From assembly GCA_964410185.1 (NCBI GenBank), contig CAYPFM010000003.1:18437-82436 (forward strand): a stretch of 64,000 nucleotides of DNA, given 5' to 3'. The position numbers and the translations under genes are program-made. Numbering within the stretch: the first letter of the stretch is position 1; each line of letters opens with the position of its first letter. The notes beneath the pieces are model-generated. The model ran no database searches. It was given only the letters and a program-made list of their open reading frames with translations, and was not told where the DNA came from. Of this stretch, positions 29,474-49,367 are shown piece by piece. Source of the stretch: an uncultured Candidatus Saccharibacteria bacterium (lineage in GTDB: Bacteria > Patescibacteriota > Saccharimonadia > Saccharimonadales > JAUPVS01).

Positions 29474-29511
29474 ATAATATCGAATTGGCAGTCTCAGGTC
29501 AAGAGTGCTAA
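29474..29511 (-). promoter_or_regulatory. clpP promoter overlapped by a CIRCE-like inverted repeat
   Basis: The minus strand reads TTAGCACTC-TTGACCTGA-GACTGCCAA followed by TTCGA-TATTAT-GGGGGT-ATG. The first repeat half matches CIRCE (TTAGCACTC-N9-GAGTGCTAA) at 9/9 and the second at 7/9. The -35 TTGACC lies in the spacer, and -10 TATTAT follows after 17 nt. Confidence 0.65.
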
Positions 29512-29665: not shown

Positions 29666-29679
29666 GATTCTTGGCCTGG

Positions 29680-29694
29680 GTCAAGAGTGCTAAC
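29680..29694 (-). repeat. third copy of the GTTAGCACTCTTGAC box (orphan CIRCE half-site plus -35)
   Basis: 15-nt exact direct repeat of the boxes at 29498-29512 and 48648-48662. It overlaps the orf149 stop codon. No partner half-site lies at N9. Confidence 0.6.
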
Positions 29695-30139
29695 TTCCAG
29701 CTTGTACATGCTCAGCCGCGTTAGCCGTGGCATGCAAAGCTGATACTACAGAAAGTGGATTAAATTCCACCTCATGGAAGCCACGGGGGCCAGCAACAAG
29801 CCGATCGCGCGAGAGCTCATCATGATTTACGGCATGAGACAAAACTCGTTCACCACGAAGGTATGTAATGTGGCCATCCAGTTCGTCGCGCGAGAAATTC
29901 ACTGTTACGGTCTGCTCAGTAGCTTCATCGAGCAATAACTTCGTAACAACAATCCTGCCACCATCTGAGCCAGTATGAACGTCGAAAGTCCGGGGGTATA
30001 AACTAAATTCCCCATTTTGCCCGTTGAGCTGAACACGGTTAACGTGATGCTCTGACAAAGCCCAAAATGGACTATGGAACGGTTTAATTAGTCGCTTTGC
30101 ACCTGTCAGTTGTGGTTTTGGAAAGGCTAGTTCACTCAT
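29690..30139 (-). CDS. hypothetical protein (orf149) between tig and clpP
   Basis: 149 aa ORF with its own promoter, TTGCGT-N16-TATACT (30169-30174 and 30147-30152). The -10 lies 7 nt before the ATG, suggesting a leaderless start. No recognisable motif. Confidence 0.6.
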   Translation of the reverse strand: MSELAFPKPQLTGAKRLIKPFHSPFWALSEHHVNRVQLNGQNGEFSLYPRTFDVHTGSDGGRIVVTKLLLDEATEQTVTVNFSRDELDGHITYLRGERVLSHAVNHDELSRDRLVAGPRGFHEVEFNPLSVVSALHATANAAEHVQAGS

Positions 30140-42896: not shown

Positions 42897-43604
42897 TTAC
42901 TTCTGCTTAGCTGTGGTTTTGAGCTCGGCAAAAATCATCTTACCGGCAACGGTTTGATGCGTGCGTGTCACCTCAACCTTGACCGACTTGCCAACCGACT
43001 TAGCAGCCCCATCGACAACCACCATGGTACCGTCATCTAAGTAACCAACGCCTTGGTTCTTGTTACTGCCCTTTTGCACGATAGTGATGGTCTTAGCCTC
43101 GCCAGGCAGTGCCAAGGGTCGTAGGTGCTGAGCCAGCTCGTTAACGTTCAAAACGGTCACACCCTTGATGTCGGCAACCTTATTGAGATTGTAGTCAGTC
43201 GTGTAAAGGCGAGCCTGGCGTTTTTGCGCCAAGGCGACAAGCTTATCGTCAACTTCTTTAATCTCTGGATATTCGGTGTTGTCGACAAGTACCGAAACAG
43301 ACGTATTGGCCTGAAGTTGCTGCACAACCTCCAAACCAAAGCGGGCACGTTCGCGTTTGTGAGCATCTGAGCCATCTGCGAGGTGCTGGAGTTCGCCTAG
43401 GATGAATTGAGGGATAATCAGCGGTCCACTCATGAAGCTGTTGTTAGCGAGCTCCAGAATGCGTCCGTCAATCAGGGCGCAAGTATCCAAAATCGTTTCT
43501 GGCCCCGTACTTTTAGTGTTTCGGTTTTTCGATTTAGTATTTCGCTTTGTTACCAGCAGGCCTATGACGGCCACTAGTAAAATTATTTCGATGTAATCTT
43601 TCAT
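42897..43604 (-). CDS. PIN and TRAM domain-containing membrane-anchored protein (YacL-like)
   Basis: 235 aa with an N-terminal TM helix, a PIN domain (ILDTCALIDGRI) and a C-terminal TRAM-like beta domain. It lies immediately downstream of radA, the usual arrangement. Confidence 0.8.
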   Translation of the reverse strand: MKDYIEIILLVAVIGLLVTKRNTKSKNRNTKSTGPETILDTCALIDGRILELANNSFMSGPLIIPQFILGELQHLADGSDAHKRERARFGLEVVQQLQANTSVSVLVDNTEYPEIKEVDDKLVALAQKRQARLYTTDYNLNKVADIKGVTVLNVNELAQHLRPLALPGEAKTITIVQKGSNKNQGVGYLDDGTMVVVDGAAKSVGKSVKVEVTRTHQTVAGKMIFAELKTTAKQK

Positions 43605-44951
43605 TTATTCTTTCTCTAAAAATTGATTTAGAGCTCCGCGCACGTCGCTGACGCCATGCAACAGAGCCGGCTTCTTGCCGCCACGCTGGACGGGCCCAAT
43701 AACGGCATCAAAGCCAAGTTTTTTGGCTTCTTCGATACGCTTGTCGATGTAAGGCACATGGCGAACCTCACCCGATAGGCCAACCTCACCAAAGACTACG
43801 GCATTCTGCTTGAGCTGAAGACCGCGAGCGGCTGAGCCAATGGCCAAGCAAATTGCTAGGTCGGCGGCAGGCTCGGTTATGCGCAAGCCGCCGACGACGT
43901 TAATGAAGATGTCCTGGTCGGCCAGATTAAGCTTGGTGCGCCGCTCCAACATTGCAACCAGTAAGTTGACCCTATTCAGATCAAAGCCGCTGGCGGTGCG
44001 CTTGGGATAGCCGTAGGAGGTCTTATTAACAAGGGCCTGCACTTCTACCAGAATCGGTCGCGACCCCTCCATGGTTGCCAGGACGATGGATCCATCGCTC
44101 ACCTGCCGCTCGGCCAACAAAGCTGCCGAAGGGTTTTTAACCGCTGTTAGACCCTTGTCTTCCATCTCAAAAATAGCCACCTCGTTGGTTGAGCCATAAC
44201 GGTTTTTAACCCCGCGTAAGACCTTAAAGCCACCGTATCGATCACCTTCAAGTTGCAAGACAACGTCAACCAAATGTTCAAGAACTTTTGGTCCGGCGAT
44301 TGAGCCTTCTTTGGTAACATGCCCTACAATAATCAGCGCCGTGTTGGATTGCTTAGCCGCGGCCGTTAACAGATGGGTACTGTTGGTAATCTGGCTGACA
44401 CTGCCGGGTGCGGAGCTGATGGCCTGACAAGCCATGGTCTGAATCGAATCAATAATAACCAGCTTGTAGGTGCCGGCGGCAATCGTGGCGGCAATATCAT
44501 CGGCACTGTTGCTGGTCGCGACCATCAGCTGTTTAGCGGTGGCGTGCAGACGCTCAGCGCGCATGCCGAGTTGATGAGCCGATTCTTCGCCGCTAACGTA
44601 CAGTACGGGCGCTTTGAGCCCCACGCCGTGGGCAATCTGTAAGAGGATGGTGCTTTTACCAATGCCCGGCTCCCCGGCAATTAGGTTCACGCTGCCGGCC
44701 ACCAAACCACCACCTAAAACTACGTCAACTTCGCTCAAGCCAGTCGCCAAACGCTTATGCAAGTCTTTGCTGGCCACATCTGTAACAGTGGCGGCTTTTA
44801 GCGATTTGCCGTTTTTAATGACCTGGTCGGCGGCAACCTGCAACTCTTCTTGGAGGGTGTTCCATTCCCCACAGGCGTAACACTTGCCGGACCAGCTGTT
44901 AGACTCGGCCCCACAGTTACTACACACATACCTCACCACAGACTTTTTCAT
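43605..44951 (-). CDS. radA: DNA repair protein RadA
   Basis: 448 aa with a zinc finger (CSNCGAESNSWSGKCYACGEW), Walker A (GEPGIGKST), KNRYG and a Lon-like C-terminal domain. TAAACT lies 6 nt before the ATG. Confidence 0.96.
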   Translation of the reverse strand: MKKSVVRYVCSNCGAESNSWSGKCYACGEWNTLQEELQVAADQVIKNGKSLKAATVTDVASKDLHKRLATGLSEVDVVLGGGLVAGSVNLIAGEPGIGKSTILLQIAHGVGLKAPVLYVSGEESAHQLGMRAERLHATAKQLMVATSNSADDIAATIAAGTYKLVIIDSIQTMACQAISSAPGSVSQITNSTHLLTAAAKQSNTALIIVGHVTKEGSIAGPKVLEHLVDVVLQLEGDRYGGFKVLRGVKNRYGSTNEVAIFEMEDKGLTAVKNPSAALLAERQVSDGSIVLATMEGSRPILVEVQALVNKTSYGYPKRTASGFDLNRVNLLVAMLERRTKLNLADQDIFINVVGGLRITEPAADLAICLAIGSAARGLQLKQNAVVFGEVGLSGEVRHVPYIDKRIEEAKKLGFDAVIGPVQRGGKKPALLHGVSDVRGALNQFLEKE

Positions 44952-45013
44952 ACTCTCAGTTTAACAAACAGATTCGCTTGCGGCGAATTCCGGTCGGTGC
45001 AGGCCGATAGCAC

Positions 45014-46033
45014 CTAGTTGGCCGTCTTGGACTCGATATGGCTGTTTAGCTCTTGCGAGAGGTTCTGCGCCTCAACGGCAATGGCGTTGCGCTTGGCAAC
45101 AATCTCGTTGTAAGTGGCAATTTGGCGTTTAGTCTGAGCAACCAACACATTGTAGGCGTTAATCTGCGCGTTAAAGTTGTCAACACTGGCATTGTAGGTT
45201 GACGTGTTTCCGCTGCTCAAGAGGCGGTTAAGCTCTTGGCGCTGTGAATCAAGACTGGATGAACGGGCCGTTAACGAAGCTTGGTTCTCTTCGATTTGTT
45301 TTTTAAGATCAGTCAGCTGCTGATCGTAGGCCGTAATTTGATCCTGGCGGCTCGTAAAGGCATTGCGGTATTGGTTGGCGTAGCCTACGACGGCTTGCCG
45401 ATCAGTAAAGTACTGCTTGTAATAGTTCTCCAGTGCGGGTGGCAAGTCAGCGACTTCCGTGCCAAAGATAGAGTGCATTTCGTTCACTAAATCATTCGGT
45501 TCGAATTTTTTGTAAGACTCAAAGGTGGCCAGTAAGCGCTTGTTATTTTGGATATTGTGATCGTAGTAGTTTTGCAGCATAGAATCGACGTTGGCGCGTT
45601 CTTTGGAGCTAAGTCGATCGTAAGCACTGTGCAGCATCTCGTGAGCCGCCGTCACCTCCTCTACCCCTTTTAGCTGTGGGTCAGATACACCGTAGATAAA
45701 AATGCCGCGTTGAGGTGGTTTGTAACATCCCAAAATAATCGTCTGCTCGCCACCGTTGTTTGGGCAGTTACTGTTGAAGTCGGCTTTATCTTGCACGGCC
45801 GGCCGGTTGACGTAAAAGTCGTGTTTGGATTTGGCCGTCATCGTAGTCGTTTCAGCCAGCGCGACAACATTCGCCGGTGCCTGATAGCCGCGCAGCCGAT
45901 ACCAATCGTAGATGGCCTGACGCTGCGCAAAGACCACGGCCACCATTGTGACCGCAATAAACAGCGATATAAGTCCTCGGGAGTGGCGTTTTGGTTGGGC
46001 GGTGGCTGTTGGAGTTGACGTCGGTTGGGGCAT
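45014..46033 (-). CDS. membrane-anchored protein with an HExxH motif and a Q/N-rich coiled-coil C-terminus
   Basis: 339 aa with an N-terminal TM helix, the candidate zinc-peptidase motif AAHEMLHSAY and a roughly 110 aa heptad-like C-terminal region. Confidence 0.6.
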   Translation of the reverse strand: MPQPTSTPTATAQPKRHSRGLISLFIAVTMVAVVFAQRQAIYDWYRLRGYQAPANVVALAETTTMTAKSKHDFYVNRPAVQDKADFNSNCPNNGGEQTIILGCYKPPQRGIFIYGVSDPQLKGVEEVTAAHEMLHSAYDRLSSKERANVDSMLQNYYDHNIQNNKRLLATFESYKKFEPNDLVNEMHSIFGTEVADLPPALENYYKQYFTDRQAVVGYANQYRNAFTSRQDQITAYDQQLTDLKKQIEENQASLTARSSSLDSQRQELNRLLSSGNTSTYNASVDNFNAQINAYNVLVAQTKRQIATYNEIVAKRNAIAVEAQNLSQELNSHIESKTAN

Positions 46034-46053: not shown

Positions 46054-48552
46054 CTACTCGTTAGCAGCGCTATACGCTAGTGCTTTGCCCCTGCCACTGG
46101 TCTTGGCGGCGACCTGAACAATGTGGCCTTTCTGATACTGCTCGTCGAGCATCTTCAGCGCGATGTGGTCCTCGATAGTATCTTGAATCAGGCGGCGCAT
46201 TGGGCGCACGCCGTTATGCGCATCGTAGCCCTTGTCGAGCAAGTACTGCTTGGCAGCCGGTGTTACCTGCAAGCCAAGCCCCTTCTTTTGCAAGCGCTGG
46301 CGCAACTCATCAAGTTGCAAGTCAAGAATCTTAAGGACATCTGGCTTGGTCAGGGCGCGGAAGACGATGGTCTTATCAAGGCGATTAAGCAGTTCCGGGC
46401 GCATCATTTTCTTCAGTTCGTCGGTAACTTTTTCTTTGTTGCGTTCGTGCAGGGCGTCGAGATCCTTCATGTCACTCTTGGCTTCGGCATGGAACCCAAA
46501 GCTGGCTTCCTTTTGTAGTTTTTCGGCACCTATGTTGCTAGTCATAATGATAATGGTGTTGCTGAAGTCGATCTTGCGGCCCTTGGCATCAGTCAGCACG
46601 CCATCCTCGAGAATTTGTAGCAACATGTTGAAGACTTCGGGGTGGGCTTTTTCGATTTCATCAAAGACAACTAGACTGTACGGCTGACGACGAATCTTAT
46701 CGGTCAGCTGGCCGCCATCATCATAGCCCACGTATCCAGCTGGCGCGCCTACCAGGCGCGACGTCGTGTGCTTCTCGCTAAATTCACTCATATCAATCTT
46801 GATCATGGCATCGGTATTACCAAAGAATTCCTTGGCCAAAACGCGCGCTAACTCGGTCTTACCAACACCGGTGGGGCCCAGGAAGACAAAAGAGCCGATG
46901 GGGCGTTGCTCGCTGGAAATACCCGAGCGGTTACGACGAATGGCCTTGGCCACGGCCGTGACTGCTTCGTTCTGCCCAATAATATGTTTTTGGAGTTGCT
47001 TCTCGAGGTTCAACAAATACTTGGCTTCGGAACGAATCACCTTACTCACTGGCACGCCAGTCATGCGGGAGACAACGTCGGCCACATCTTCACTGCTCAT
47101 AGTAATCCGCTTGCCGGCTTTGGTGGTTGATTTGAGTTTTTCAATCCCTTGAGACAGCTTACTTACCTGCGTCTTGTACTCGGCGGCCTTTTGGTAGTCA
47201 CCACTATCAGCCGCTTCTTCCATACGAACATTCAAAAGTTTAAGCTCTTTTTGTAGCTTACGCAGCTCAGGTGGCGTTTTGCCCTTGTCGACGCGCAAAT
47301 GCGCGGCCGTTTCATCAAGTAGGTCGATGGCCTTATCGGGCATGTAACGATCGGCGATGTAGCGCTTGGCCAGGGTGACCGTATCGTCAAGAACTTCGTC
47401 ACTTACTTTCACGTTGTGGAAGGCCTCGTAGTGTTTTCGCAAACCCTTTAGGATGGCGAGCGTTTCTGGCACACTGGTTTCGGGTACCTGGATTGGTTGG
47501 AAGCGCCGTTCGAGCGCCGCATCTTTTTCGATGTGCTTGGTGTATTCATCAGTTGTGGTTGCCCCGATTACCTGGATTTTGCCACGAGCCAGAGCGGGCT
47601 TGAGGATATTGCCGGCGTCCATGGCGCCTTCGGCCGCACCGGCGCCCACGATCAGGTGTAGCTCATCAATGAACACGATAGTCGACTTGTCAGCCTCGAG
47701 TTCGGCCATAACTTTCTTGAGGCGTTCTTCAAACTCACCACGATACTTGGTGCCAGCAATCATGCCAGCCAGATCAAGCATGACGATGCGTTTTTCGAGT
47801 AAACTGTCGGGGACATCTTCGGCGATAATACGCTGCGCCAAACCTTCCACGATTGCGGTCTTACCAACACCCGGTTCACCAATCAGAACCGGATTATTTT
47901 TGGTTCGACGATTCAGGATCGTAATCACACGGCGAATCTGCGGCTCACGACCGACCACTGGATCAAGTTTTTTGTCGCGTGCTTGTGCCGTCAGGTCGGT
48001 GCCATAAAAGTCGAGAGCAGTTTTGCGGGCTTTTTTAGAAGGACGCTTACGGGTACCAGTTTGGTCGGGGTTGTCTTCGTACTGTTGGCGGTTCAAGAAC
48101 TGCTCAAGTTCGTTCAGCAAACCGTCAACATTCACATTCATGTCCCTCAATAGTACCGTCGCGCGAGCATTCTTTTGGCTCAAGATACTGTATAGAATAT
48201 GCTCGGTACCGCAGAATTCCTGGCTATAGTCTTGGGCCACATCAAAGGCCATTTTCAAGGTTAGTTTGGCGGTTTCGCTCAAGCCCTTGGCGCCCATATT
48301 TATTACCAGGGTCTTCGGGGTAAGATTGAGTGCGAGCCGCGCGCGGTCCAGCGTAACGCCGGCGCCTTCGAGCATTTTGGCGCCCATTGATGAGTCTTGT
48401 GCAAGGACGCCCAGCAAAAGGTGTTCGGTGCCAACATAGGCACTGCCAAAGCTACGCGCAATGGCATCGGCGTGCTTAAGGCTGTGCACGGCGTTGTCCG
48501 TTAAGTGATTAACGAAATCGCTAAAATCGGCGTTTGAAGAGTTTGGCATCAT
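46054..48552 (-). CDS. clpC: ATP-dependent Clp protease ATP-binding subunit ClpC-like (class I AAA+)
   Basis: Clp N-repeat, two AAA+ modules ([18 protein letters not shown]) and a short UVR-like middle segment. I trimmed to ATGATG at 48552 (AAAGGTGG Shine-Dalgarno upstream) because the promoter lies inside the longer track ORF. Confidence 0.93.
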
Positions 48553-48622
48553 GATTATTATCCCACCTTTCGTTGTGAACAAACTGAGAAGTTTGCTGGC
48601 CGCAGCACAAGCTGCTACAACC

Positions 48623-48661
48623 ATAATATCGTAATTGGCACTCACGAGTCAAGAGTGCTAA
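48623..48661 (-). promoter_or_regulatory. clpC promoter overlapped by a CIRCE-like inverted repeat
   Basis: The minus strand reads TTAGCACTC-TTGACTCGT-GAGTGCCAA followed by TTACGA-TATTAT. The repeat halves match CIRCE at 9/9 and 8/9. The -35 TTGACT lies in the spacer, and -10 TATTAT follows after 18 nt. About 45 nt are nearly identical to the clpP promoter. Confidence 0.7.
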
Positions 48662-48698: not shown

Positions 48699-49367
48699 CT
48701 ATCTGTCAACGTCAGGTGCCAACGCATGCCAGTCGCTACCCCAGAGCTGCACCATCGACCAATTAGGGTCAATTTCAAACTGGCAGACTGCCGCTAAAAC
48801 GCCGTCGCAATCTTCGGCGGTTAAAACTGGAGGCTCGTAGCCAATTTGACGGACTGCATCAATAACCGGAATAGCTGACTGATTTGGGTTGCGCAGATGC
48901 TCAGGCACAGCCCGATACTGGTCAATCAGCATGTCCTCAACTAAATCAGATACCGCATTCGGTACGGCAACTGGCGGCATTTCAGCCGAAGCCCAAACTC
49001 TATAGCCATCATGAGCAAGCGTATGAGCTCTGCCATCCAAAAAATCGAGGTCTGCATCACGGACATATGGTGAACCGTCACGATATAAGCTCATGCTAAC
49101 TTCAATAAGCGACTCGGTCCGATATAAATCAACCCTTTCTCCTCTTATCGCTTCAGCGCCTAAAGCGGTCGCTGCAACACGTTGGTCAAAGTCAAAAGAT
49201 ACCGACACGCATTCATCGGGACAAAATTGAACGAGTTTGCCAAACTTTTGTTTGCAGAGTTCAGTCAACTCTTGGGCTCGTTCAGTGGCTAGATTCGCAA
49301 GCTCAGCGTAAAACAGATGCTGCTTAGGCATTCGGTCACGAAATGGGTCGAACTCAAGATCAATCAC
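48699..49367 (-). CDS. hypothetical acidic protein (orf222) between nusA and clpC
   Basis: 222 aa ORF with a GTG start 17 nt after the nusA stop; the start is uncertain. No recognisable motif. Confidence 0.5.
   Translation of the reverse strand: MIDLEFDPFRDRMPKQHLFYAELANLATERAQELTELCKQKFGKLVQFCPDECVSVSFDFDQRVAATALGAEAIRGERVDLYRTESLIEVSMSLYRDGSPYVRDADLDFLDGRAHTLAHDGYRVWASAEMPPVAVPNAVSDLVEDMLIDQYRAVPEHLRNPNQSAIPVIDAVRQIGYEPPVLTAEDCDGVLAAVCQFEIDPNWSMVQLWGSDWHALAPDVDR

Follow-up and report, generated by a model that had tools for sequence, protein, structure and literature searches.

A putative HrcA operator built around the −35 element of the clpC promoter in Candidatus Saccharibacteria

What controls transcription of clpC in an uncultured Candidatus Saccharibacteria bacterium? 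The question arises from a short segment in front of the gene, within the 64,000-nucleotide stretch of genomic DNA analysed here (“the window”): the minus strand from 48661 to 48623 reads TTAGCACTC TTGACTCGT GAGTGCCAA TTACGA TATTAT, which had been described as a CIRCE-like operator on a promoter nearly identical to that of clpP. The letters are exactly as they had been reported, and domain hits bear out the naming of the two genes as a ClpC-type ATPase and ClpP. We believe that the segment is very probably a functional CIRCE, the operator of HrcA, combined with the sigma-70-type clpC promoter; it would block the promoter and be freed by protein-folding stress. With CIRCE in the clpC promoter, the Clp genes and the chaperone genes appear to share HrcA as their repressor.

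The CIRCE consensus, as given in PMC3842655, is TTAGCACTC-N9-GAGTGCTAA, and the clpC site agrees with it at 17 of 18 arm positions with the exact 9-nt spacing. The repeat halves therefore score 9/9 and 8/9, in line with the original prediction, the one mismatch being in the right arm (CCAA for CTAA), a variant shared by 10 of 73 relatives. A promoter scan, in which the start itself is only predicted, ranked TTGACT-18-TATTAT as the top sigma-70-like site in 6.7 kb, with 10/12 hexamer positions. The two elements are interlocked: the first six bases of the CIRCE spacer are the −35 hexamer, the left arm lies just 5′ of it, and the right arm occupies the interval between −35 and −10. The operator thus covers positions of about −45 to −19, counted from the predicted start, and overlaps the −35 and the promoter spacer of a proteostasis gene; lying upstream of that start, it would not be transcribed. 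At the level of sequence, the clpC site has everything that defines a CIRCE operator. The coordinates of all features are collected in the table.

Table. Coordinates of the clpC and clpP operator-promoters, the clpC leader and the neighbouring genes in the window
Feature	Position	Strand	Basis or remark
CIRCE operator TTAGCACTC-N9-GAGTGCCAA	48635..48661	−	consensus match and conservation
CIRCE left arm	48661..48653	−	
CIRCE spacer	48652..48644	−	
CIRCE right arm	48643..48635	−	
−35 hexamer TTGACT, within the CIRCE spacer	48647..48652	−	promoter scan
−10 hexamer TATTAT, 18 nt past −35	48623..48628	−	promoter scan
Predicted transcription start A, 7th nt past −10	48616	−	inferred from promoter geometry
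5′-terminal stem-loop GCAGC-TTGT-GCTGC	48602..48615	−	folding; begins at +2 of predicted transcript
Second stem-loop, core CAAACT-TCTC-AGTTTG	48578..48597	−	folding
Shine-Dalgarno-like AAAGGTGG, 10 nt before ATG	48563..48570	−	
clpC CDS, 832 aa from ATG 48552	46054..48552	−	
orf339	45014..46033	−	no family hit
radA	43605..44951	−	domain hits
PIN-TRAM gene	42897..43604	−	domain hits
orf222, GTG start, between nusA and clpC	48699-49367	−	
clpP cassette	29474..29511	−	CIRCE 29511..29485 (2 mismatches), −35 TTGACC 29502..29497, −10 TATTAT 29479..29474
Relic of left half of clpP cassette	29679..29700	−	20/22 nt; no right arm, no usable −10

Searching the whole window for CIRCE with up to three mismatches returned two sites, 48635-48661 (one mismatch) and 29485-29511 (two mismatches), the latter in front of clpP; 100 dinucleotide-preserving shuffles of the window returned none. 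The direct heptad repeat of CtsR, (A/G)GTCAAA-NAN-(A/G)GTCAAA, gave five matches at the same tolerance of up to three mismatches, against 6.75 expected, and none of them is near the clpC or clpP promoter. A CtsR operator at either gene was rejected, as no box rises above chance, and ctsR-mcsA-mcsB is absent upstream of clpC, where nusA and orf222 are found instead. Because neither a CtsR box nor a ctsR gene was found, the HrcA site looks like the sole recognisable stress operator here.

Conservation was assessed by a protein-guided scan for clpC in relatives, keeping one genome per species, which yielded 80 loci, nearly all labelled Saccharibacteria or Saccharimonadales, with ClpC identities of 55-92%. 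CIRCE (≤3 mismatches) lies 42-290 nt before the clpC ATG in 73 of the 80, i.e., in 73 of the 74 with enough upstream DNA, so that the expected conservation in relatives is found. Of the seven loci without it, six lie on contigs with less than 90 nt of upstream sequence, and L076 is the only one of the 74 informative loci that truly has no CIRCE. Among the 73 sites, 35 have no mismatch, 21 have one, 15 have two and two have three; the GCACTC-N9-GAGTGC core is invariant, and variation is confined to the outer four bases of each arm. The promoter is retained together with the operator: position 1 of the spacer begins TTGAC (51 loci) or TTGCA (13) in 64 of 73 relatives, and a −10-like hexamer follows CIRCE by 4-7 nt in nearly all of them, giving a promoter spacer of 16-18 nt. 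In the 990 kb of relatives’ clpC loci, each locus contains exactly one CIRCE with ≤2 mismatches, always before clpC. Since the surrounding sequence has diverged and different genes stand upstream (in many relatives nusA directly), the element is evidently tied to clpC. One arm of the window's site is imperfect, and a true relic of the same cassette exists elsewhere in the window (at 29700..29679, see below), yet the empty shuffles and an invariant core kept amid diverged flanks in all but one informative species make it exceedingly improbable that the palindrome arose by chance or is a decaying remnant without present function.

A different objection concerns RNA. A transcribed CIRCE in Bacillus has been proposed to act as an mRNA-destabilising element, and here the 9-bp arms could pair in RNA, in an element 38 nt past the orf222 stop codon and on the same strand; the inverted repeat might therefore act mainly as a hairpin in read-through transcripts, as a terminator, a processing site or a destabilising element. 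We regard this as very unlikely, because the element is upstream of the predicted start and so would lie outside the clpC mRNA, and because it stays with clpC in relatives while the gene upstream changes. The terminator version was rejected: no T-run follows the palindrome, and the terminator scan made no call. Nor was orf222 itself retained as a hidden regulator: it has neither Pfam nor NCBIfam hits, does not resemble HrcA, and has just one weak homologue (33%) among the 80 related loci. The ORF is a lineage-specific insertion or else not a real gene.

The product of clpC is a ClpC-type double-AAA+ ATPase with hits to Clp_N, two AAA+ modules, AAA_2, UVR and D2-small, and it scores under the ClpB and ClpA equivalog cut-offs. 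It carries FGF at residues 685-687, in what we take to be the loop where ClpP partners bear their docking tripeptide. The mechanical ORF begins at GTG 48645, inside the CIRCE operator, and is 31 codons longer than the frame from ATG 48552. Relatives retain the N-terminus MMP(N/S/Q)S.DF, and in 63 relatives the same frame remains open 5′ of it over a median of only six codons; the start is therefore ATG 48552. The long version was rejected, as its start falls in the operator and the extension is not conserved, and the trimmed start at ATGATG that had been put forward is upheld by the conserved MMP N-terminus.

Downstream of clpC, the gaps to orf339, radA and the PIN-TRAM gene are 20, 62 and 0 nt, and the order clpC-orf339-radA is kept in 74 of the 80 loci. 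Together these suggest one transcription unit, in which the genes in 42897..46033 are probably co-transcribed with clpC. Synteny of nusA and clpC is kept in 69 of 80. The conserved orf339, between clpC and radA in those 74 Saccharibacteria loci, has no Pfam hit and has an N-terminal hydrophobic segment. The clpC-radA linkage is itself reminiscent of the Firmicutes clpC operon.

From the predicted start, the clpC leader would be 64 nt long, and folding gives two hairpins that leave the Shine-Dalgarno-like AAAGGTGG free. The Shine-Dalgarno sequence and the ATGATG (48552..48547) are present as the original prediction had them; so is the sequence of the GCAGC-TTGT-GCTGC hairpin, its position (48615..48602) being 2 nt from the one given. 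The sequence GAAAGGTGG before clpC recurs in L002-L004, L014, L016 and L061. A stem begins no more than 4 nt from the predicted 5′ end in 43 of 49 relatives with a leader (shuffles 18.2 ± 3.7, maximum 29), and these 5′-terminal stems differ in sequence (GCAGC/GCTGC, AGCGA/TCGCT, GGCC/GGCC and others). As the relatives are not independent, the conserved stem is supportive rather than conclusive. The folding energy of the leader is no different from that of shuffles (z = −0.53); what relatives conserve is only where the stem sits, at the 5′ end. An Rfam search of the leader gave no family at E ≤ 1.

The second hairpin has a counterpart at the same place in the L004 leader, GATAGTCT-TCTC-AGACTATC, with an identical loop and an entirely different stem. 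Comparing CAAACT/AGTTTG with GATAGTCT/AGACTATC gives a pattern of compensatory change.

In several relatives, e.g., L028, L043, L046, L006 and L007, a distance of 0-4 nt separates the clpC ATG from the predicted start. Such loci appear to carry leaderless, or almost leaderless, forms of this promoter and so lend indirect support to both the −10 assignment and the position of the predicted start.

The second copy of the cassette, in front of clpP, closely resembles the first: 37 of 42 aligned positions are identical, from GTTAGCAC to TATTATGG. The claim of “about 45 nt almost identical” thus stands as to near-identity and is slightly generous as to length. At clpP, the ATG (29467) is the 7th nucleotide past the −10 TATTAT, leaving no room for a Shine-Dalgarno sequence, and the clpP mRNA is therefore probably leaderless. 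Six clpP loci were chosen by protein homology alone, because the pattern used in the contig scan described below could bias the result for clpP; all six carry the cassette, with CIRCE (0-2 mismatches) 18-40 nt before the clpP ATG. The leaderless spacing is common to L216 and L218; in the other four loci, a Shine-Dalgarno sequence is present in a leader of about 20 nt.

The relic lies 182 nt upstream of the real clpP cassette, where it overlaps the stop codon of orf149, and from its sequence it looks like a decayed duplicate of the clpP operator-promoter. A similarly degenerate copy is present in L217, about 240 nt ahead of clpP. Between tig and clpP (29690-30139 of the window; L214-L219), small orphan ORFs without Pfam hits differ from one genome to the next, their sizes being 0, 79, 99, 127, 149 or 193 aa, or 105 plus 95 aa; the interval, immediately 5′ of the clpP operator, is a hypervariable site of insertion. 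At clpC, the contigs of both closest relatives, L002 (JAUPVS010000007.1, positions 1-40) and L003 (CAZVKH010000009.1, positions 1-40), break off inside the leader at 19-36 nt from the ATG, perhaps because the presence of the cassette at both clpC and clpP disrupted the assemblies.

How far does the cassette extend beyond the Clp genes? Scanning metagenome contigs for the exact pattern TTAGCACTCTTGACNNNNGAGTGCTAA gave at least 120 loci, with a downstream ORF callable in 106. Among these 106 listed matches, the gene behind the cassette encodes an HrcA-like protein in 39, DnaK in 26, ClpC/ClpB in 11, ClpP in 8, GroES in 5, a Zn-ribbon protein in 4, Hsp20 in 3, GroEL in 1, DnaJ in 1 and other products in 8. 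Among the scan matches listed, therefore, the cassette stands almost exclusively before proteostasis genes. The idea that two unlinked Clp genes sharing one cassette are co-regulated gains support from this, as the cassette also precedes hrcA, dnaK, groES and hsp20 in the lineage. On the hrcA contigs, the order is hrcA-grpE-orf-dnaK-...-dnaJ, and hrcA is immediately preceded by a perfect CIRCE, its spacer containing TTGAC, together with a TATTAT. In four metagenome contigs (L085, L088, L114 and L141), the gene immediately after the cassette encodes a small Zn_ribbon_8 (FmdB-like) protein of about 100-113 aa, which may belong to the heat-shock regulon as a member not yet characterised.

The HrcA-like proteins from the scan match PF03444, PF01628 and TIGR00331. 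They have at least 8000 close homologues, for which the JGI name is heat-inducible repressor; at NCBI, the proteins are named only “transcriptional regulator”, and some are labelled Candidatus Saccharibacteria. Judged by homology, HrcA is widespread in the phylum. The protein is unusual in size: in Saccharibacteria and other Patescibacteria (loci L083-L201 and L202-L222) it has about 225-245 aa, about 235 being typical, which is about 100 aa shorter than usual (about 340 aa), and it falls below the NCBI HrcA cut-off; it may accordingly behave differently. A single alignment with an HrcA of 358 aa, together with the split TIGR00331 match, suggests that a middle block of about 100 aa is missing, presumably at about the site of the inserted dimerising domain of Thermotoga HrcA. 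An AlphaFold2 model of the short HrcA, built with 36 close homologues, has a mean pLDDT of 56, with the C-terminal part below 50, a quality too low to bear out the missing block, and a PDB sequence search with the same protein matched the N-terminal winged helix of 1STZ only.

The identity of the repressor has to be weighed at this point. No hrcA, groEL or dnaK was found in the 64-kb window and no hrcA in the relatives’ clpC loci, and none of the MAGs matched by the HrcA homologue look-ups is also the source of a clpC locus. In published TM7x transcriptomes, which compare phases of symbiosis and not heat shock, most chaperone genes are higher at the initial encounter and a Clp gene is higher later, a pattern that does not fit strict co-regulation of chaperone and Clp genes. 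The palindrome could accordingly be imagined as the site of a regulator other than HrcA with a CIRCE-like target, or of HrcA jointly with a second stress regulator. The absence of hrcA from the window, a lineage HrcA that is truncated and under the curated cut-off, and the TM7x data would all be compatible with this, as would the known dual CtsR/HrcA control of Streptococcus salivarius clpP (PMC145324). We nevertheless consider it unlikely, given that the same element precedes hrcA itself (the classic autoregulatory layout) as well as dnaK and groES, that there is no CtsR box, and that no second conserved motif was seen in the aligned clpC upstream regions of the relatives. As for TM7x, co-regulation may not be strict in every Saccharibacterium, or further controls may be layered on top.

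With HrcA as the repressor, the arrangement of the clpC promoter suggests how it would work. An HrcA dimer bound at about −45 to −19 would exclude RNA polymerase, since the operator surrounds the −35 and fills the interval between −35 and −10. By analogy with the GroE-titration model, HrcA would be active as long as GroEL/ES is free, and its DNA binding would be lost once unfolded proteins titrate the chaperonin or heat denatures HrcA. Derepression of clpC, probably with orf339 and radA, would follow, and clpP, hrcA-grpE-dnaK and the other CIRCE genes would be derepressed alongside it. The clpC transcript would start near A48616 and be translated from ATG 48552, the stem-loop at its 5′ end probably serving to stabilise it against 5′-end-dependent decay. 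Both the titration model and HrcA operators overlapping core promoters are documented in other bacteria (PMC6032397).

Going one step further, the truncated HrcA of about 235 aa might be the single master repressor of the proteostasis network (DnaK/GrpE/DnaJ, GroES/EL, Hsp20, ClpC, ClpP and ClpB) in Saccharibacteria, perhaps in Patescibacteria, acting through the module with the −35 in the CIRCE spacer and replacing the separate CtsR, ClgR or sigma-32 circuits that other bacteria use. We offer this wider proposal tentatively, placing its chances somewhat below even.

Among known systems, the class I regulon of Bacillus subtilis (groESL and hrcA-grpE-dnaK-dnaJ) has the same operator sequence and the same 9-N9-9 geometry (PMC3842655). 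As in B. subtilis, hrcA of the lineage heads an hrcA-grpE-dnaK operon behind CIRCE, the predicted promoter is of the vegetative sigma-70 type, and the logic of GroE titration is presumed to apply. The differences lie in the targets, the operator and the protein: the CIRCE targets here are clpC and clpP, two genes assigned in Bacillus to the class III regulon of CtsR; the operator encloses the −35 and would not be transcribed, whereas the CIRCE of B. subtilis is at or downstream of the transcription start; and the lineage HrcA has about 235 aa against about 340. In Firmicutes, clpC is part of the operon ctsR-mcsA-mcsB-clpC-radA-disA under CtsR. Our locus resembles this operon in having radA after clpC on the same strand and, as we propose, a stress repressor that occludes the promoter; unlike it, there is no ctsR, mcsA or mcsB upstream and no heptad repeat, and the unrelated conserved orf339 stands between clpC and radA.

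In Mollicutes, HrcA control has been extended to clpB and lon (PMC5138195). The parallel is that, in a small genome poor in regulators, HrcA has come to act on AAA+ protease and disaggregase genes in addition to chaperones; the targets differ (clpC and clpP as opposed to clpB and lon), as does the phylum, and an embedded −35 is not described there. To our knowledge, Mollicutes have no ClpCP. The clpP gene of S. salivarius (Chastanet and Msadek 2003, PMC145324) is likewise preceded by CIRCE, which places a Clp protease under HrcA; it also bears a CtsR operator, whereas no CtsR box or ctsR was found here. In Helicobacter pylori, HrcA sites similarly extend over the −35, −10 and start, and HrcA binding is strengthened by GroE (PMC6032397). 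Our literature search found no paper on HrcA in Saccharibacteria, Patescibacteria or TM7. The clpC locus is thus a canonical HrcA-CIRCE system at a new target in an understudied phylum.

For annotation, the clpC start belongs at 48552 and not at the head of the 31-codon-longer ORF, and clpP is probably leaderless. The cassette of about 45 bp is a compact promoter, probably inducible by stress, and could find use in the newly tractable genetic systems of Saccharibacteria (PMC10633639). Placing Clp genes under class I control would make this the second reduced-genome lineage to do so, after Mollicutes. Patescibacteria account for a large share of bacterial diversity, and their gene regulation is almost wholly unknown; from the clpC site, one arrives at a predicted regulon for the phylum, in which one repressor and one operator-promoter module would govern the chaperone and Clp genes together.
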